Positions 7,148-20,173 of a stretch of DNA of 64,000 nucleotides are shown here, in pieces. A program made the translations under genes and the position numbers. The DNA comes from Alphaproteobacteria bacterium (lineage in GTDB: Bacteria > Pseudomonadota > Alphaproteobacteria > UBA828): contig CAXXMU010000006.1 of NCBI GenBank assembly GCA_963667785.2, positions 24,547 through 88,546 of the forward strand, in the 5' to 3' direction. Every line of letters begins with the position of its first letter. Position 1 is the stretch's first letter. Below the pieces are notes generated by a model that was not told the origin of the DNA, ran no database searches, and saw only the letters and a list, made by a program, of their open reading frames with translations.

Positions 7148-8455
7148 CTAGAGAAGCATGGTGAGCGGGTCTTCGATCAGGCCCTTGAACGCCTGCAGGA
7201 AGGTGGCGCCGAGGGCGCCGTCGACCACCCGGTGATCGACCGAGAGCGTGCACGTCATCTGGGTCGCCACCGCGAGCGCGCCGTCCCGGACCACGGGCCG
7301 CTGCGCGGCGGCGCCGACGGCGAGGATCATCGACTGCGGCGGGTTGATGATCGCCGCAAACTCCCTGATGCCGTACATGCCGAGGTTGGAGACGCTGAAG
7401 GTGCCGCCCTGGTACTCCTCCGGCGCGAGCCCCATGGGCTTGGCGCGGGCGCGGCCGGCGAGCTCCTTCACCTCGGCGGAGATCTCGGCAAGGCCCTTGT
7501 TGGCCGCATTGCGCACGATGGGCGTCACCAGCCCGTCCTCGATGGCGACGGCGACCGAGACATCGACGCTCGCGTAGCGCCTCAGCGCGCCGTCCACCCA
7601 GGAGGCGTTGGCCGCCGGCACCTTGCGCAGCGCCAGCGCCGCGGCGCGGATCACGAAGTCGTTGACCGAGAGCGAGTAGTCGTCGGAGCGGCCGTTGAGC
7701 TCGGCCCGGGTCTCCAGCAGCGCATCGACCGTGCAATCGACGGTGAGGTAGAAGTGCGGTACGTCGCGCTTCGCCTCCTGCAGGCGCTGGGCGATGACCT
7801 TGCGCATGGTGCTCGCGGGCACGTCCTCCCAGGCGGCTGCGGCGGGCGCGGCAGGCGCCGTCGGAGCGGCCGGGGCCGGCGCGGGCGCGGCAGCGGGAGC
7901 GGAAACGGCAGCGGGGGCCTCGGCAGTCGCTGCGATCGCCGCCTCGACATCGGCCTTCACGATGCGTCCGCCGGGTCCGGTGCCGGCGATCGCCTCGAGC
8001 GCCAGGCCGGCTTGCTTAGCCATGCGGCGCGCCAGCGGGCTCGCGAAGATGCGCGCACCGGGCTCGCGCGCGGGCGCGGGGGCTGCAGCGGCAGGCGCGG
8101 CTTCCGGCGTCGGCGCGGCGGGCGCGGCCTCGGGCGCAGGTTCGGCCGGAGCGGGAGCGGGGCTTGCGGCCGGCGCGGCGGCCGCGGCACCGTCGAGCGC
8201 AGAGGCGTCCTCGTCCTCTTCCAGGATCAGCCCGATGACCGCGTTCACCGCCACGCCCTCGGTGCCGGCGGGGACGACGATCCGGCCGAGGGTTCCCTCG
8301 TCGGTCGCCTCCACCTCCATCGTCGCCTTGTCGGTCTCGATCTCGCACAGGATATCGCCGGCCGCGACCGGGTCGCCCTCGTTCTTGAACCAGCTCGCGA
8401 CGTTGCCCTCGGTCATCGTCGGCGAGAGGGCCGGCATCAGAATCTGAATCGGCAT
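7148..8455 (-). CDS. pdhC: Pyruvate dehydrogenase complex dihydrolipoamide acetyltransferase (E2)
   Basis: 435 aa with an N-terminal lipoyl domain (EIETDKATMEVEA), an Ala/Pro-rich linker, and a C-terminal catalytic DHRVVDGA motif. Confidence 0.95.
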   Translation of the reverse strand: MPIQILMPALSPTMTEGNVASWFKNEGDPVAAGDILCEIETDKATMEVEATDEGTLGRIVVPAGTEGVAVNAVIGLILEEDEDASALDGAAAAAPAASPAPAPAEPAPEAAPAAPTPEAAPAAAAPAPAREPGARIFASPLARRMAKQAGLALEAIAGTGPGGRIVKADVEAAIAATAEAPAAVSAPAAAPAPAPAAPTAPAAPAAAAWEDVPASTMRKVIAQRLQEAKRDVPHFYLTVDCTVDALLETRAELNGRSDDYSLSVNDFVIRAAALALRKVPAANASWVDGALRRYASVDVSVAVAIEDGLVTPIVRNAANKGLAEISAEVKELAGRARAKPMGLAPEEYQGGTFSVSNLGMYGIREFAAIINPPQSMILAVGAAAQRPVVRDGALAVATQMTCTLSVDHRVVDGALGATFLQAFKGLIEDPLTMLL

Positions 8456-8464
8456 GATGACTCC

Positions 8465-9448
8465 CTAGGTTCGGTAGCAGGCGCGGCGGGCCGCATCCGC
8501 TATGTCGGCGGCGCCGGGCAGGCTCGCGGCCTCCAGGCTGGCGGCATAGGGCATCGGCACGTCGGCGCCCGAGACCCGCTCGACCGGCGCGTCGAGCGCA
8601 TCGAAGGCGCGCTCCATGACCATCGCGGCAAGCTCGGCGCCGATGCCGGCGAACGGCCAGCCCTCCTCCACCGTGACCAGCCGGTTGGTCTTCTCTACCG
8701 AGGCCAGCACGGCCGCGCCGTCGAGTGGCCGGAGCGAGCGCAGGTCGACGACCTCGGCCTCGATGCCCTCTCCCGCCAGCGTCTCCGCCGCCTCCAGCGC
8801 GTTCCCCACCATGATCGAGAAGGCGGCGATGGTGACGTCGCCGCCGGCGCGCGCGATCGCGGCCTTGCCGATCGGCACCACGTGCTCGCCCTCGGCCGGG
8901 ACCTCGAAGCTCTGGCCGTAGAGAAGCTCGTTCTCCAGGAAGACGACGGGGTTGGGATCGCGGATGGCGGCCTTGAGCAGCCCCTTGGCGTCGGCCGCCG
9001 AATAGGGGGCGATCACCCGCCAGCCCGGCACGTGGGCGAACCAGCTCGCGTAGCACTGCGAGTGCTGCGCCGCGACCCGCGCGGCCGCGCCGTTGGGGCC
9101 GCGAAAGACCACGGGCACCGGCAGCAGGCCGCCGGACATGTAGAGCGTCTTCGCGGCCGAGTTGATCAGGTGATCCATCGCCTGCATGGCGAAGTTGAAG
9201 GTCATGAACTCGACGATGGGCTTGAGCCCGCCCATGGCGGCGCCCACGCCGATGCCGGCGAAGCCCGCCTCGGTGATCGGCGTATCGATCACGCGGCCGG
9301 CGCCGAACTCGTCGAGCAGGCCCTGGCTCACCTTGTAGGCGCCCTGGTATTCCGCGACCTCCTCCCCCATCAGGAAGACGTCGGGATCGGCCCGCATCTC
9401 CTCCGCCATCGCGTCGCGGAGCGCCTCGCGAACGGTCTGCTGCACCAT
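8465..9448 (-). CDS. pdhB: Pyruvate dehydrogenase E1 component beta subunit
   Basis: 327 aa of transketolase-like pyrimidine-binding and C-terminal domains. It lies between pdhA and pdhC. No N-terminal lipoyl domain is present. Confidence 0.95.
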
Positions 9449-9473
9449 GGCCGGCCGGCGTCCCCTGCGTCTC

Positions 9474-10493
9474 TCAGGCGCCGGCGACGACGTGGGACGC
9501 GAGCGCGGCTGGGTCGGGCTCGGGCGCTCCTTGCGCGAAGTCGGCGGCGTCGTTGACCACCGCCCTCACCTCCTTGTCGATCTCCTTGAGCGCCGCCTCG
9601 TCCGCATGGCCGCCGTCGACCAGCGCCTCCCGCGCCTGGGCGATCGGGTCGCGCTCCTCGCGCACCTTGCTCACCTCCTCACGGCTCCTGTACTTCGCCG
9701 GATCGGACATCGAGTGGCCACGATAGCGGTAGGTCATCATCTCCAGCAGGCGCGGCCCCTTGCCCGCCCTGAGCGCGGCGACCGCCTCCTGCGCCGCATG
9801 GAGCACGGCGCCCACGGCCATCCCGTCGACCCGCCCGCCCGGAATGCCGAACGCGCTGCCGCGCTCGTGCAGGTCGGAGACCGCCGCCGAGCGCTCCACC
9901 GAGGTGCCCATGGCGTACTGGTTGTTCTCGATCACGAAGAGCACGGGCAGCTGCCACAGAGCCGCCATGTTGAAGGCCTCGAACACCTGGCCCTGATTGG
10001 CCGCGCCGTCGCCGAAATAGGTGACGGAGATGCGGTCCGAGGCGCGGTACTTGTGGGCGAAGCCGAGGCCGACCCCGAGCGGCACCTGGGCGCCGACGAT
10101 GCCGTGGCCGCCGTAGAAGCCGCGCTCGGGCGCGAACAGGTGCATCGAGCCGCCCCTGCCCTGCGATGCGCCGGCCGCGCGCCCGGTGAGCTCCGCCATG
10201 ACGTCGCGGGGCGGGACGCCGGCGACCAGCATGTGGGCGTGGCAGCGGTAGCCGGTGATCACCGAATCGCCGGGCTCGAGCGCGTACTGCACGCCGGTGA
10301 CGACGGCCTCCTGCCCGATATAGAGGTGGCAGAAGCCGCCGATCAGGCCCATGCCGTAGAGCTGGCTGGCCTTCTCCTCGAAGCGCCGGAGCAGCAGCAT
10401 GTCGCGGTACGAGCGATGGAGCGCGTCGGGCTCCATCGCGGCCGCCTGCGCGGGCGCGGCGCCGCCACGGGCTCTCTTCTTGGCGGTCGCCAT
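9474..10493 (-). CDS. pdhA: Pyruvate dehydrogenase E1 component alpha subunit
   Basis: 339 aa with the ThDP-binding region [22 protein letters not shown]. Confidence 0.95.
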
Positions 10494-11041: not shown

Positions 11042-13072
<2,031 letters not shown>

Positions 13073-13076
<4 letters not shown>

Positions 13077-15157
13077 CCCACGTCGAGCACGATGCAGCCG
13101 GCGTCGTTGAGCCGGGCGCGCACGCCGGGCGGGACGACGCAGGTCGCGTCGTATTCCTCGACGATCAGCGGCCCCTCCCTCTCGCGGGCCAGGTCGGCGC
13201 GGCCGATGACGGCGGCCTCGCACCAGCCGCCTTCCGGGCCGAAGTAGGCGCTGCGGGCGCGGGGCGTCTCCGTCGTGCCGGCCCGTGGCGCGATGCGGGG
13301 CGGCGGCGCGGCGGGCCGCACGCCCCGGCCGAGCACCCTGAGCGTGACCAGCTCGACCGGCTCCTCCGGGCCGGCGCGGTGGCCGTAGGTGCGCTCGTGC
13401 TCGGCGCCGAACGCTTCCTCGAGGGCGGCGAGCGCCGCGTCGTCGAGGGGGCCGTCGGGCACCGGGACCGTGAGCTCGTAGATCTGGCCCTGGTAGTGGA
13501 GGCTGGCATGACGCTCGATCCGGGCCGCCGGCCCGTCGTAGCCGTCCGCCGCGAGCCGCCCCGCCGCATCCGCCGCCAGCGCATCCCAGGCCGCGGCGAG
13601 CGCTTCCTTGTCGAGGCCGCGCAGCAGGGCGCGGAAGGTGCGCGAGAGGTGATGCTCGACGTCCGCCGTGAGCAGGCCGAAGGAGGAGAAGAGGCCCGGC
13701 GCCGGCGGCACCACCACGCGCCGGATATCGAGCGCCTGCGCCATGGCGGCGCCGAACACCGGGCCGTTGCCGCCGAAGGCGACGAGGGTGTAGCCGCGCG
13801 GATCGCGGCCGCGCTCGGTCGAGACCGCCCGGATCGCCCGGATCATGTTGGAGGCGACGATGCGGTGGGCGCCGTGGGCCGCCTCCTCGACCGGGACGCC
13901 GAGCGGCGCGGCGATCTCTCGCTCCAGGGCGCGGATCGCGCTGGCGGCGTCGATGGGCAGTGCACCGCCCACGAGATAGTCCGGATTGAGATAGCCCAGC
14001 GCCACGTTGGCGTCCGTGATCGTGGGCGCGCTCCCGCCCTTGCCGTAGCAGACGGGTCCGGGCTCGGCGCCGGCGCTCTCGGGCCCCACCTGCAGGGAGC
14101 CGCCGGCATCGATGGTGATCAGCGAGCCGCCGCCGGCGCCGACCTCGGCGAGGTCGATGGCCGGCATCCGCACCAGATAGCCCGCGCCGGTCATCAGGCG
14201 CGAGCCGGCAAGGATGCCGCCGCCCACCTGGAACTCGCTGGAGCGGCTGATCTCGCCGCCCTCGATCAGCGCCGCCTTGGCGGTGGTGCCGCCCATGTCG
14301 AAGGTGACGAGATTGTCCTGACCGAGACCGTCCGCCATGGCGAGCGCGCCGACCACGCCGCCCGCCGGCCCCGATTCGACGATGTTCACGGGGCGTCGCG
14401 CCGCCTCGTCAGCCGAGGTGAGGCCGCCGTTCGACTGCATGATGAGCAGAGGGGCGCCGGCGCAGCGCTCGCCGACGGCCTGCCGCAGGCGCGCGAGATA
14501 GCTCTGCACGATCGGGCTGATGTAGGTGTTGATCACCGTGGTGGACGTGCGCTCGTACTCCTTGATCTCGGGCAGCACGTCGTAGCTGACGCAGACAGTG
14601 CAGCCCGGCGCGCGCTCCTTGACGATCGCCTCCAGCGCCCGCTCGTGGACCGGGTTGGCGAACGAGTTGATGAGGCAGACGGCGATCGCGTCCACCCCCT
14701 CGGCAAGCAGCCTCTCCACCGCGGCCTTCGCGTCGTCCTCGTCGAGCGCCGTCTGCACGCGACCCGACGCATCGATCCGCTCGTCGACGACCGCGCGCAG
14801 GTAGCGCTCGACCAGCGGCGGCGGCTTCTCCCAGGCGAGGTCGTAGAGCCGCGGCATCCTGAGGTTGCGGATCTCCAGCACGTCGCGGAAGCCGCGCGTG
14901 CCGATGAGGCCGGTGCGGGCGCCCTTGCGCTCCAGCAGCGCGTTGCTCGCCACCGTCGTGCCGTGCACGACCTCGGCGATGGTGGCCGCCTCGAGCCCGT
15001 GCTCGGCAACCAGCGACGCGATCCCCTCCATGATGGCGCGGGCATAGTCGTCAACGCTGGAGGAGACCTTCCGCGTCGCCACCGTGCCGTCGTCGGCGAG
15101 CAGAACGATATCGGTGAAAGTGCCGCCGATATCGACGCCGATACGCCAGGTGCTCAC
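13073..15157 (-). CDS. Hydantoinase/oxoprolinase family protein, A subunit
   Basis: GTG 15157 gives (M)STWRIGVDIGGTFTDIVLL, a HyuA N-terminus. The GTGA overlap with the stop of the upstream B-subunit gene suggests translational coupling. The 1315-aa ORF in the track is a read-through artefact. Confidence 0.9.
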
Positions 15158-17016: not shown

Positions 17017-17272
17017 GCACCCCTCCCCGGCCGGCCGCGATGATAGGAGGGAGCCAGCGCCGCGTCGACTCTGGCCGCCCAATCAGAGGAGCTCCGACTG
17101 GATTGCCGGGGGGCTGGCTTCTTCGTCCGGCCGGACTTTGGCCGTACGTTGCTGCTATCTAGCTCAGCGCAACCCAACTTTCCCGCAACACCCGTTCTGC
17201 TGTCTGCTCACCCCTAACGTACTTTAAAGTGCAGGAGGGACTTGACGATTTCACAGTCGTTTCAGTGCTGGC

Positions 17273-19858
17273 CTATCTGGTTCCACCGAAGCCTGCGAGG
17301 AGATCGACTGCGGGGGTCCGATCGTTGAGAATTCCCGCCATCTCCTCGTGAGCAGGACCGAAGAAGGAGCCTGCAAGATGGCCATCCGCGTCAGAGAACG
17401 AATTCCCGGTGACCTCAACGTCGTAGGAAAGCGTAGGCGATCGGAAGTCAACCGCTTCGCCATCGGTATGGACAGTGAGGTTATCAAATTGCGCGGTGCC
17501 ATCGAGGGTCTCCAAGTCAACACCAAGCTCGGCGTCGCCAAAGACTGGCGGCAAATGTGCGCTGCCGAGGTCGACGCCGATGAGCGACCCTGCCCATGTT
17601 GCGTTTCCTAAAGACTCAGGCGTGTGCAGCTCGGCGAGGCTAATGCTCGGAGCCACACCGAATGCGTCGACACCGACGCGCAGTTGGTCTTGTGCTACGA
17701 CGTCCAATCCATCGTCTACGTACGTTAGGACACGCTCCGCACCTGCCCCCCAAGCGCTGTACTGGCCCCAGGCCCCGTAACCGTAAAGTTCCGGCTCCGA
17801 TGCCGTGTCCGCGCCGAGAATCTCGTAGCCAATGTCATCAAGATACGCAAAGTCGATCTGGGCAGGTTCGTACACTTCTCTCGGCTCGTTGCAGTACGCC
17901 ATGAGAGATGAGCAAACACCCAAATGAGCGTAATCCACGGTTGCTCCAGGGGTGAAAGGGGCCACCACATTCCTGTTTGAATCGAGCCACTGAAACGGAA
18001 CGGGATTGCCACCGTTGGCCCTTTGAGATTCCGGCCCTTCGAAGGTGGCATCCTGGCGATTTATATATTGTTCGATGACCGGAACGTTCCATCCGCTTTC
18101 ATGATTTACCACACCGATTATGTGTCCAATCTCATGTCCTAATACGTGGACAAACCACCAATTTCCTATTGATCCTCGTTCATTGATGTTGCTCTGCGAC
18201 AGGGTCAGCACTCCGTGCCACGGTTGATAATCGTTCGGCGTTATATCAGCGCTAATTGGTCCACCCGAAGACAGCGGATCGGTGGTAGCGTGCAGTACGG
18301 TAACCAATACCCCATTCGTTTCGAAATCTCTTGCATAGGTCACGGTGATCGGTACTGCGCCTGCATGTGCGGGAGCCGCTTGAATTGTTGTCCCTGCCGT
18401 CACTGTGTGCGTACCCAAGTCGTCAAGAATTCGATGCGACCAGAATTTACCGGCCCGTTCCATCTGCGCACGCGTCTTGGAATCGATATTCGGCGCAAAC
18501 TGCCAGTCGAACCCTATGTTGAGCGTTCCAGCGGGACCGCCCTTCCATTGCCCATACGTGATTCCGTCGCGCTCACCGATAATCTCAATTTCATCAGGGT
18601 TGACATTGCGGAAGACGGTTCCTGAAGTTGTAGGGTCAGACCCGGCAGCGTCAATCAAGTCCCTTATCACCGTTCTTCGACTTTCAATATCTGTTTGGTT
18701 TAGCGGACTCAGGGCGAGTACGGTCCTCAACGCCTCCGAATCGTTCCAGTGGTCTAGAAGGTCTTCGGCCGTGGTGTTGTTGCGCCACTCGGTTGCAAGC
18801 GGTCGCTGGTATCCGGGGGCATTCACGGCGGTCACCATGCCGCCGGTCGACGTGGCGGTGACTGCACCGTTCGCGTCCACCATCACCGTGACCTCGCAAT
18901 CGCGACCGCCGGCCGCGCAGGAGAACGCGATGCCGCCGTGCTCTTCCGATTGGCCCGCCTCAATCGTGACGGTGCCCGCATCAGCCATGAAGCCCGCCGT
19001 CACACCGGCCAGATCGACGTTCATCGGCGTAACTGCGTTTTGGTAGTCAGCGGAGTTCATGGCGGTCACCATGCCACCGGTCGACGTGGCGGTGACTGCA
19101 CCGTTCACGTCCACCATCACCGTGACCTCGCAGTCGCGACCGCCGGCCGCGCAGGCGAAGCTGATGTCGCCGTGATCCTCCGATTGGCCCGCAGCAACCG
19201 TCACCGTGCCGGAACCGGCCATGAAGCCCGCCGTCACACCGGCCAGATCGACGTTCATCGGCGTAACTGCGTTCTGGTAGTCAGCGGAGTTCATGGCAGT
19301 GACGGTGCCGCCGGTCGATGTGGCGGTGATGTCGCCGCTCGCGTCCACCATCACCGTGACCTCGCAATCGCGCCCGCCGGCCGCGCAGGCGAAGCTGATG
19401 TCGCCGTGATCCTCCGATTGGCCCGCAGCAACCGTCACCGTGCCGGAACCGGCCACGAAGCCGGGCGTCACGCTTGACAGACTGACCATCGTCGGTGTGA
19501 CGGCCGTGTTGTAATCGGCGGAGTTCATGGCGGTGACGGTGCCGCCGGTCGATGTGGCGGTGATGTCGCCGCTCGCGTCCACCATCACCGTGACCTCGCA
19601 ATCGCGCCCGCCGGCCGCGCAGGCGAAGCTGATGTCGCCGTGATCCTCCGATTGGCCCGCAGCAACCGTCACCGTGCCGGAACCGGCCATGAAGCCGGGC
19701 GTCACGTTGGAGAGGTCGACAGCCTCGGGCTGGGGCATGGTTGTCCCCCCGCCGTCGGTCCCGCCGCTGCTGCCACCGCCGCCGCAGCCGTACAGTCCCA
19801 GCGCAAGCACCAAGGCTGCCGCGAGGCCCGTCGCGTAGTTCATGGGTGTCGTTTTCAT
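17273..19858 (-). CDS. Multidomain lipoprotein: lipobox, Gly/Ser tether, 4 x 78-aa Cys-containing repeats, metzincin-like Zn-protease motif, TbpB/fHbp-like C-terminal barrel signature
   Basis: ORF 17273..20020. The preferred start is ATG 19858 (MKTTPMNYATGLAAALVLALGLYGC, signal peptide plus lipobox Cys25), followed by GGGGSSGGTDGGG. See the sub-features and findings. Its codon usage and GC are visibly lower than in neighbouring genes. Confidence 0.85.
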   Translation of the reverse strand: MKTTPMNYATGLAAALVLALGLYGCGGGGSSGGTDGGGTTMPQPEAVDLSNVTPGFMAGSGTVTVAAGQSEDHGDISFACAAGGRDCEVTVMVDASGDITATSTGGTVTAMNSADYNTAVTPTMVSLSSVTPGFVAGSGTVTVAAGQSEDHGDISFACAAGGRDCEVTVMVDASGDITATSTGGTVTAMNSADYQNAVTPMNVDLAGVTAGFMAGSGTVTVAAGQSEDHGDISFACAAGGRDCEVTVMVDVNGAVTATSTGGMVTAMNSADYQNAVTPMNVDLAGVTAGFMADAGTVTIEAGQSEEHGGIAFSCAAGGRDCEVTVMVDANGAVTATSTGGMVTAVNAPGYQRPLATEWRNNTTAEDLLDHWNDSEALRTVLALSPLNQTDIESRRTVIRDLIDAAGSDPTTSGTVFRNVNPDEIEIIGERDGITYGQWKGGPAGTLNIGFDWQFAPNIDSKTRAQMERAGKFWSHRILDDLGTHTVTAGTTIQAAPAHAGAVPITVTYARDFETNGVLVTVLHATTDPLSSGGPISADITPNDYQPWHGVLTLSQSNINERGSIGNWWFVHVLGHEIGHIIGVVNHESGWNVPVIEQYINRQDATFEGPESQRANGGNPVPFQWLDSNRNVVAPFTPGATVDYAHLGVCSSLMAYCNEPREVYEPAQIDFAYLDDIGYEILGADTASEPELYGYGAWGQYSAWGAGAERVLTYVDDGLDVVAQDQLRVGVDAFGVAPSISLAELHTPESLGNATWAGSLIGVDLGSAHLPPVFGDAELGVDLETLDGTAQFDNLTVHTDGEAVDFRSPTLSYDVEVTGNSFSDADGHLAGSFFGPAHEEMAGILNDRTPAVDLLAGFGGTR
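17276..17608 (-). other. TbpB/fHbp-type C-terminal beta-barrel signature within the lipoprotein
   Basis: GNATWAGSLIGVD...FGDAELGVDLETLDGTAQFDNL...VEVTGNSFSDADGHLAGSFFGPAHEEMAGIL...LLAGFGGTR follows the hallmark pattern ATW.G..G....GdA.L.VdF....F.n....I.GN.F....G.FyGP.a.E.aG.f...GaFGa.R. Confidence 0.6.
18122..18136 (-). other. HEIGH zinc-binding motif of the lipoprotein
   Basis: The reverse complement catgagattggacac encodes HEIGH within WWFVHVLGHEIGHIIGVVNHE. A Met-turn-like SSLMAY lies about 70 residues downstream. Confidence 0.6.
18785..19720 (-). repeat. Four in-frame tandem repeats, 234-bp period (78 aa each), inside the lipoprotein gene
   Basis: CCACCATCACCGTGACCTCGCA recurs at 18877, 19111, 19345 and 19579, exactly 234 bp apart. 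Each unit encodes ...GTVTVAAGQSEDHGDISFACAAGGRDCEVTVMVD..G..TATSTGG.VTA... Confidence 0.9.
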
Positions 19859-20042
19859 CGAAGCCTCCCTGGCATTGCCGAGGCTCGCTTGCGGGCCGGC
19901 ACGAAGCCTCTGCATCCCCGCCTTCGCGACCCGTCCTCGCGCTGCTGCCCCCACTACTGCGCGGATGGACCGGGGCAGACTCTCGACAGCCGACCAGGAG
20001 GGTCCTCGGCAGAGAGTCATTATCCGCCTTAGTATAGATATA

Positions 20043-20070
20043 TCAATATAGTTATATCTATGTGGCCACT
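20043..20070. promoter_or_regulatory. AT-rich perfect 9-bp inverted repeat (ATAGATATA-N10-TATATCTAT) upstream of the lipoprotein gene
   Basis: Read directly from the sequence. It lies about 185-210 bp upstream of ATG 19858 in the only strongly AT-rich stretch of the window. Its function is unknown. Confidence 0.3.
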
Positions 20071-20173
20071 AGAAACGAGCGCCCTGCTGCTCTCGGAACA
20101 GGCTGGCCGCGGCCCTGGCCGCTCCCTAGAATGACGGCTCGGAACGACGGCCGGGCAACGGTCAGGCTGGCAG

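Follow-up and report, generated by a model that had tools for sequence, protein, structure and literature searches.

What kind of protein is encoded by a solitary 861-codon gene inserted between housekeeping genes of an alphaproteobacterial genome, and on which side of the outer membrane would that protein act? The question is raised by the open reading frame (ORF) at positions 17273-19858 of a 64,000-nucleotide stretch of contig CAXXMU010000006.1, which derives from an Alphaproteobacteria bacterium. The whole stretch is referred to below as the window, and the coordinates given for features within it are window positions on the minus strand. A preliminary description, prepared from the sequence alone, had interpreted the product as an orphan chimera that mounts a metzincin-like protease on the scaffold of a Slam-type surface lipoprotein (SLP), with a glycine-rich lipid anchor at one end and a barrel at the other. 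All of the sequence features listed in that description, namely the lipobox, repeats, zinc motif, Met-turn and C-terminal motifs, are found in the translation.

We lean towards the view, based on sequence comparisons and structural models, that the 861-aa protein is a lipid-anchored zinc endopeptidase displayed on the cell surface by the Slam translocon of the type 11 secretion system (T11SS). Given that the core of the protein (residues ~355-861) has more than 230 homologues, and that their alignment holds 50 invariant columns, the observation is far beyond what chance would produce.

A C-terminal lobe of predicted TbpB type

The end of the protein very probably forms a lobe of the TbpB type. 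In an AlphaFold2 (AF2) model of residues 351-861 (pLDDT 93.1, pTM 0.89), three long strands form a handle-like beta region (residues 690-751; 17606-17791). After it comes an eight-stranded barrel (residues 752-861; 17276-17605), delineated by the model and by profiles, that ends with GSFFGPAHEEMAGIL...LLAGFGGTR. When the model was compared with the PDB by using Foldseek, the top 50 matches were all to TbpB, LbpB, fHbp, NHBA or HphA. The best match of the C-terminal lobe reached E=4.7e-7 over approximately 200 aligned columns, corresponding to the last ~170-200 residues. A model of residues 351-689 alone gave no Foldseek match to a TbpB-, LbpB- or fHbp-type fold. Searches of the PDB with a profile of the family recovered TbpB (3hol, E=3.6e-5) and LbpB (E=4e-4), and hhalign comparison with bona fide TbpB_B_D barrels gave E=1.5e-5. 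The TbpB/fHbp-type barrel proposed in the preliminary description is thus borne out by the fold and profile matches, and a handle can be added in front of it.

In an alignment of 87 homologous sequences, conservation of the final strands that typify this barrel ranks with the highest in the protein, which suggests selection on an export signal. The barrel is presumed to serve as the domain that targets the protein to the Slam/T11SS machinery.

A probable, divergent metzincin-like catalytic domain

The region in front of this lobe (residues 424-689; 17792-18589), as delineated by the model, fold matches and profile searches, quite likely constitutes an active metzincin-type zinc peptidase. Its zinc motif, HEIGHIIG (residues 575-582; 18113-18136), is located at the end of the putative active-site helix. 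Counting column conservation in the 87-sequence alignment, we found His575 and His579 in 87/87 sequences, Glu576 in 86/87 and Gly582 in 82/87. The Met-turn region CSSLMAYC (residues 649-656; 17891-17914), which includes a flanking pair of cysteines, was recognized by its conservation in the same alignment (C649 in 86 sequences, S651 in 85, M653 in 78, Y655 in 83 and C656 in 85).

The third zinc ligand required closer consideration. In the preliminary description, this role had been given to a histidine displaced by one residue from its canonical place, His586, and we reject this candidate, which lies in a variable insertion and is a histidine in only 11/87 homologues. The only invariant histidine downstream of HExxHxxG is His645 (17924-17926), which is present in 87/87 sequences and in all distant relatives, and Met653 follows it eight residues later. 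Equivalents of both His645 and this methionine are kept even in very distant relatives, in which the turn reads A-L-M-D-P. Given that His645 is invariant while His586 is variable, the third ligand is almost certainly His645, located ~66 residues downstream as in leishmanolysin.

The predicted architecture is compatible with a metzincin. The AF2 model places His575 and His579 in a helix (core positions 216-231) whose end is at Gly582, and the elements around this putative active-site helix, namely a backing helix, a beta-sheet and then a C-terminal helix, are ordered as would be expected of a metzincin. Foldseek matches of the residue 351-689 model are almost only to metzincins, with serralysins first, followed by PrtC, TACE, MMP-13 and stromelysin; the best serralysin matches of this protease-only model have E ~0.03 and probabilities of 0.8-0.9.

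A catalytic profile built from the family only (A3) gave nothing in the PDB better than E>=0.06. A broadened profile (A4), in which the family profile was supplemented with distant relatives, recovered stromelysin-3 (MMP-11, 6.4e-5), karilysin (9.3e-5), fragilysin (2.1e-4), MMP-1 (2.4e-4) and, over a stretch of 166 positions, leishmanolysin (1lml, 1.9e-3). In the three A4 alignments inspected, the match is restricted to the strand and active-site helix surrounding HExxHxxG. Among Pfam peptidase families, neither PF00413 (Peptidase_M10) nor any other gave a match for the 861-aa protein, and in the relatives tested PF00413 scored 13.8-23.6 bits, below its cut-off of 24 in every case. Single-sequence phmmer searches of the PDB yielded only noise, such as the chaperonin CCT epsilon at E ~0.4.

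The metzincin-like zinc protease that had been proposed is therefore supported by the conserved HExxHxxG and S-x-M-x-Y motifs, by the fold matches and by the A4 profile at E ~1e-4. From these sequence relationships, we conclude that the catalytic domain represents a divergent and undescribed metzincin-like family, in which an insertion of ~60 residues would displace the third ligand.

In front of the catalytic domain, the alignment and the model define a segment at the N-terminus of the conserved core (residues 357-423; 18590-18790) that carries a DLLDH motif and a long helix. The region of about 220 aa that had previously been set apart as belonging to no recognizable family is hence not a separate unit, since the alignment and the model place it in the N-terminal part of the conserved protease core. 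At the start of this core, DLLDH is invariant and the tryptophan after it nearly so (residues 366-371; 18746-18763). The first ~20 core residues have pLDDT values of 87-89 when the C-terminal lobe is included in the model and 31-49 when it is omitted. This loss of confidence suggests that the DLLDHW segment packs against the lobe or serves as a prosegment.

The lipoprotein N-terminus and cysteine repeats

We hold with high confidence that the 861-aa protein is a lipoprotein. The sequence of the signal peptide (residues 1-24) and of the lipobox L-Y-G-C with its predicted lipidation site Cys25 (19784-19858) reads MKTTPMNYATGLAAALVLALGLYG up to the cysteine and GGGGSSGGTDGGG after it, and this type of N-terminus is common to the homologues. 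The peptide ends with LALGLYG before the cysteine, which we take to fit a PROSITE-type lipobox pattern. Next comes a tether rich in Gly, Ser, Thr and Pro (residues 26-45; 19724-19783). Poly-Gly after the cysteine is a family-wide trait and the Cys-polyGly N-terminus is kept in nearly all homologues, in keeping with the earlier identification of this tether.

Four tandem 78-aa modules, each carrying a C-x6-C pair, span residues 46-123, 124-201, 202-279 and 280-356 (18791-19723 in total; 19490-19723, 19256-19489, 19022-19255 and 18791-19021 individually). The repeats carry FACAAGGRDCEV, which is replaced by FSCAAGGRDCEV in the fourth. Their number and size agree with those first reported, and at the DNA level they form a 234-bp tandem array of 3.8 copies with 91% matches. 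Pairwise identity between repeats ranges from 91% (repeats 1 and 2) down to 76% in comparisons with repeat 4. Across 16 modules, positions G23, C35, C42, V46, G52, G60 and G61 are invariant, with both glycines of a T-G-G motif among these seven, and family members carry from 0 to 9 copies of the module.

Single modules have no significant match in Pfam (~15 bits, E >= 0.01), and a profile of the module likewise has none in the PDB. The four repeats taken together exceed the Pfam cut-offs for MycE_N (38 bits) and DUF6522 (32.9 bits). We reject homology to these families as an additive artefact, given that the scores are sums over near-identical repeats that are individually non-significant. The same modules, along with a near-identical signal peptide and tether, are also present on the bilobed TbpB-like lipoproteins P0117, P0118, P0116 and P0002, which match PF01298 at 52-78 bits.

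The eleven cysteines of the protein can be accounted for as the lipidation site plus five pairs, which fits an oxidizing, extracytoplasmic location. We consider that the four modules probably form a disulfide-stapled stalk or spacer of variable length.

A separate observation concerns the homologous loci L019, L020 and L021, where two close homologues share the slot between GFA-family and MOSC genes downstream of a ribosomal protein operon. One is a 693-aa protein with two repeats; the other, with a called length of 585 aa, has a single repeat. Thus, repeat number varies between strains at a single locus.

Family size, distribution and domain architectures

The reading of this protein as an orphan is rejected. 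When 5.8 billion proteins were searched, 231 of the candidates that were scored reached E<=1e-3, with listed E-values down to 0. With a protease-only profile run filter-free, 905 clusters (50% identity) passed E<=1e-3, of which 116 also passed E<=1e-30. The homologues are nearly all from metagenomes or metagenome-assembled genomes (MAGs), and none has a functional name. The conserved unit comprises the last ~505 residues, and the shortest family members consist only of a signal peptide, the Cys-polyGly sequence and this core. A genome scan located the core in MAGs labelled as Alphaproteobacteria, Nitrospirales, Candidatus Binatia and Defluviicoccus, often with several copies per genome. One carrier, Nitrospira bin75, originates from the sponge Aplysina aerophoba (PMC5649159).

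In distant relatives, the catalytic domain is fused to RTX repeats, PPC domains, FG-GAP domains or Kre9-like Ig domains (P0273, P0270, P0271 and P0262). RTX and PPC modules are typical of secreted proteases, and their presence supports the assignment of the domain as a protease. As judged from these sequences, a single protease module has been paired with a variety of modules for export or anchoring. Two further architectures were encountered in the family. Protein P0023 includes a beta-lactamase domain, a TbpB barrel and a protease core, and P0008 starts with a barrel fragment and has two tandem protease cores. These may be real fusions, or read-through or assembly artefacts of tandem genes.

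Association with Slam genes

Slam genes found adjacent to homologues lend further weight to the idea that a protease is carried on the scaffold of a Slam-type surface lipoprotein. In three homologous loci, L005, L007 and L014, a gene for a protein with PF04575 (SlipAM/DUF560; 67-85 bits) and TPR sequences is positioned directly beside the family gene. The order in L005 is an SLP, the Slam gene at 8310-9671 and a protease SLP that is 73% identical to the core encoded in the window. In L014, a protease SLP is followed by a bilobed TbpB-like SLP (PF01298, 87 bits) and then Slam, and in L007 a paralogue, Slam and two large paralogues are found in succession. Next to the cluster in L005, we also observed a gene (12567-14744) whose 725-aa product carries an endonuclease/exonuclease/phosphatase domain at its N-terminus and a long C-terminal region resembling an outer-membrane barrel.

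Slam and family members need not be neighbours. Among the best 120 of more than 2085 Slam matches, which came from 8000 scored candidates, Slam and family members appear to share at least six contigs. On a 5.36-Mb Binatia chromosome, the listed Slam is located at 1.22 Mb and the family genes are at 2.93 and 5.32 Mb, which indicates that it is normal in this protease family for Slam to be far away. Clear Slam/DUF560 genes (PF04575) are present in Candidatus Binatia MAGs (L007 3212-4573 and L022 8001-9365), whereas T11SS has been described in the literature as proteobacterial.

On the basis of these gene associations, Slam-dependent surface exposure is likely for the family as a whole. For the 861-aa protein itself, we regard such exposure as somewhat favoured.

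Mosaic origin of the gene and its surroundings

The gene starts with an ATG at 19858 and ends with a stop codon at 17273-17275. A Shine-Dalgarno-like sequence, GGGAGG (19864-19869), was read 5 nt upstream of the ATG. A longer ORF that starts from an ATG at 20020 was considered and rejected, as the homologues all begin near MK. The flanking genes code for a Hydantoinase_B protein (PF02538) and an APH-family phosphotransferase (PF01636), which agrees with the hyuB and kinase-like genes named in the preliminary description.

The 5′ portion of the gene differs in history from its core. The window and its relative L001, a locus from an Alphaproteobacteria MAG, share two collinear stretches with 80-88% DNA identity, the first of which extends through the APH gene. 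Collinearity resumes at window position 18801, from which the core and hyuB/hyuA are again matched. The interval between, at window positions 18802-20099 (GC content ~67%), comprises the promoter region, 5′ untranslated region, signal peptide, tether and four repeats, and has no DNA counterpart in L001 according to blastn. In its place, L001 has 526 unrelated bases (9479-10004) and a different signal peptide. Moreover, residues 1-194 of the 861-aa protein are 76.5% identical to the bilobed TbpB-like lipoprotein P0118. Given the absence of this swapped cassette from the collinear locus and the resemblance of the N-terminus to P0118, the gene is chimeric in the evolutionary sense. The syntenic orthologue in L001 is itself intact, with 79% protein identity.

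GC content is 55.6% in the core, 67% in the repeats and 71-72% in the flanks within the window. In the Nitrospirales loci, the GC content of the gene (~56%) equals that of its flanks, which is compatible with transfer from a donor of ~55% GC. Thus, the core appears to be a low-GC, horizontally acquired sequence that was joined to a 5′ cassette common to other surface-lipoprotein genes.

No conserved neighbours were found across 18 loci, save for paralogues, Slam (3 loci) and integrases (3 loci), and no flanking DNA common to the loci was found except for a short stretch, noticed by eye, immediately upstream of the start codon. The integrase genes, which encode tyrosine integrases (Arm-DNA-bind_3 plus Phage_integrase), are within 10 kb of family members at L006 11537-12808, L010 16193-17515 and L014 7175-9502, a proximity that hints at carriage on integrative elements. 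Scans of the 64-kb window for tRNAs and Rfam families found nothing, and so there is no obvious integration landmark.

Upstream of the gene, a promoter-like site, TTGATA-16-GATAAT (20046-20019), is located ~160 nt before the start codon. It is a consensus match only, agreeing with a sigma-70-like promoter at 10/12 positions, and four promoter-like sites were found in the region compared with 0.6 expected. Its −35 hexamer is overlapped by an AT-rich, near-perfect palindrome of 14+14 nt (ATAGATATATCAAT/ATAGTTATATCTAT; 20034-20061), which stands in an otherwise 72% GC genome and could function as an operator. Downstream, an imperfect 18-nt palindrome (CCCTAACGTACTTTAAAG/CTTTAAAGTGCAGGAGGG) lacking a T-run is present at 17212-17239, ~35 nt past the stop codon. 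We found no convincing intrinsic terminator between the protease gene and hyuB.

A proposed mechanism and its alternatives

In the mechanism we favour, the signal peptide would direct the protein to Sec export, Cys25 would be acylated and the glycine at position +2 would allow sorting to the outer membrane by the Lol pathway, as expected from the sequence and from established lipoprotein biology. The C-terminal handle and barrel would then be recognized by the outer-membrane protein Slam (DUF560/PF04575), and the unfolded chain would be translocated to the outside. We infer this dependence from Slam genes that adjoin homologues and from the literature on TbpB, which is translocated in the unfolded state by Slam1 (PMC9090332). 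T11SS cargo is likewise known to pair an N-terminal effector with a C-terminal barrel (PMC8406197).

Outside of the cell, the Gly-rich tether and the four Cys modules would hold the divergent metzincin domain away from the membrane. Zinc would be bound by His575, His579 and His645, as their invariance suggests, with Glu576 acting as the general base and with Met653 and Tyr655 forming the Met-turn. Given the sources of the family, the substrate is most plausibly a host or environmental extracellular protein.

Several observations weigh against this reading and should be kept in mind. The barrel scores below the relevant cut-offs, both for PF01298 (TbpB_B_D; E=5.9e-4, 17.9-20.8 bits versus a cut-off of 26) and for NF041636 (slam_lipo; E=9e-5, 22.7 bits versus 80), and inspection of the alignments reveals that its sequence similarity is confined to the last one or two strands. 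In the protease domain, the extended motif HExxHxxGxx(H/D) is absent, as the residue three or four positions past the glycine is variable. The fold matches of the protease-only model are weak, with none at E<=1e-3 and TM-scores of 0.2-0.3. Finally, tblastn found no Slam homologue in the 64-kb window, where we also found no other barrel-bearing or repeat-bearing gene, and a Slam is located within 10 kb in only 3/18 homologous loci. The earlier statement that the gene has no partner is thus correct for the window, but it does not extend to other genomes, where Slam adjoins family members or shares a chromosome with them.

The missing Slam in the window, and near most homologous loci, would suit an outer-membrane lipoprotein protease that faces the periplasm and has no Slam partner, its lobe serving only a structural or substrate-binding role. 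The gene also stands alone as an insertion among housekeeping genes, and so do its closest relatives at L019 and L021, which could be read in the same way. We nonetheless consider this arrangement unlikely, because family members occur in SLP-Slam operons, because the megabases that separate the listed Slam from two family genes on one chromosome make a distant Slam normal, and because the conserved final barrel strands suggest selection on an export signal. A different possibility accepts Slam-dependent export and treats the anchor as transient, such that cleavage in the tether or repeats, by the protein itself or by another protease, would free a soluble enzyme. T11SS does secrete soluble cargo such as hemophilin/HphA, and the lipoprotein cargo Pls is released after export (PMC12282271; PMC8406197); HphA structures are, in addition, among the fold matches of the lobe. 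However, the lipobox and tether are kept in almost every family member and no cleavage motif was identified, and so we judge shedding to be improbable.

Two further explanations dispense with enzymatic activity, and we give each very little credence. The protein might be a TbpB-style receptor whose ligand-binding N-lobe is a catalytically dead, zincin-like fold, as all characterized Slam/T11SS cargo consists of binding proteins, whether adhesins, haemophores or binders of metals and complement factors (PMC12282271), and the position of the third histidine is non-canonical. Yet the catalytic residues, including the glutamate expected to act as general base, are invariant or nearly so in the 87 sequences and are kept in distant relatives, some of which carry the PPC or RTX modules typical of proteases. 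Alternatively, the atypical GC content of the core (56% versus 72%) and the mosaic 5′ region might mark a recently acquired gene that is unexpressed or decaying and has no current function. Against this, the 861-codon ORF is intact with all of its conserved residues, it has its own ribosome-binding site and promoter-like site, and the intact L001 orthologue indicates that the gene was retained after the two lineages diverged. On balance, we retain the surface-displayed zinc endopeptidase as our preferred interpretation.

Implications

The known cargo of T11SS comprises adhesins, haemophores and metal- and complement-binding proteins. The T11SS literature searched recounts ~10 cargo architectures, none of which is a protease, and describes the system as proteobacterial (PMC12282271; PMC8406197; PMC5449769). 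We found no description of a protease as T11SS cargo in that literature, nor any description of DUF560 in sponge symbionts or Nitrospira. If our reading is true, protease cargo would widen the known range of T11SS deliveries and would show that Slam can pass a catalytic domain of large size.

A broader proposal, which we put forward tentatively and would not yet call probable, is that these proteins constitute a mobile, phylum-crossing family of Slam/T11SS-exported metalloproteases. They would represent the first enzymatic cargo class, present also outside of Proteobacteria (in Binatia and possibly Nitrospirales) and perhaps a shared adaptation of marine sponge symbionts, with swappable 5′ cassettes exchanged among surface-lipoprotein cargo genes in a ‘plug-and-display’ manner. 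Three observations are relevant to the dispersal and diversification of surface proteins in host-associated communities: the occurrence of the family in MAGs of Alphaproteobacteria, Nitrospirales and Binatia, of which at least one came from a sponge; the strongly deviant GC content of the core; and the swapped cassette.

No Pfam model covers the catalytic domain, although it is represented by ~900 clusters (50% identity) and is joined to several export modules, whether a TbpB-like barrel, RTX repeats or PPC domains. This points to a sizeable blind spot in the annotation of proteases.

Comparison with known systems

The closest architectural parallels are the Slam-dependent surface lipoproteins of Neisseria and Pasteurellaceae, including TbpB, LbpB, fHbp, HpuA, NHBA and PmSLP. 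As in these proteins, an N-terminal lipobox and Gly-rich tether precede an N-terminal effector, and the C-terminal export region is predicted to consist of a handle and an eight-stranded barrel with the motif G-G-F-[FY]-G-P-x-x-E-E-[ML]-x-G; some loci of the family also have an adjacent Slam. Characterized Slam/T11SS cargo binds transferrin, lactoferrin, haem, metal or complement factor, or functions as an adhesin (PMC12282271; PMC8406197; PMC5449769). In contrast, the effector of the 861-aa protein is predicted to be a metzincin-like enzyme domain rather than a ligand-binding lobe, its barrel remains below the Pfam and NCBIfam cut-offs and its gene has no adjacent Slam or TonB-dependent receptor. 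The hosts differ as well, with mucosal pathogens on one side and environmental or symbiont MAGs of several phyla on the other. A single C-terminal barrel lobe behind an N-terminal effector is also the arrangement of the soluble T11SS cargo proteins hemophilin/HphA and HrpC, but these carry type I (SPI) signal peptides, lack lipidation and bind haem, whereas the 861-aa protein is predicted to be a protease lipoprotein.

With regard to catalysis, the closest parallels are the matrixin and serralysin metzincins (MEROPS M10; MMPs, karilysin and serralysin), which provide the best profile and fold matches. Shared characteristics include HExxHxxG, placed by the model at the end of the active-site helix, the predicted backing helix, beta-sheet and C-terminal helix, and a putative Met-turn that reads S-x-M-x-Y as in serralysins and astacins, or A-L-M-D-P in distant relatives as in MMPs. 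Unlike in M10 enzymes, the proposed third histidine is not three residues past the glycine and is preceded by a ~60-residue insertion. PF00413 stays below its cut-off throughout the members tested, and the TM-scores are only 0.2-0.3.

The proposed spacing of the zinc ligands recalls instead leishmanolysin and invadolysin (MEROPS M8), in which the third histidine is set apart from HExxHxxG and the Met-turn follows soon after, as described for leishmanolysin (PMC6899020). The insertion that sets this histidine apart in leishmanolysin is reportedly long (Schlagenhauf et al. 1998). There is, however, no significant overall similarity to M8, and the 861-aa protein does not have the C-terminal domains of that family. 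Moreover, M8 enzymes are eukaryotic and are anchored by glycosylphosphatidylinositol (GPI), unlike the 861-aa protein.

A final parallel is NalP of Neisseria. NalP is a subtilisin-like serine protease that uses its own autotransporter barrel, and thus its mechanism and fold are unrelated to those proposed here, but it likewise combines lipidation with surface exposure of a protease on a Gram-negative cell (PMC5449769).

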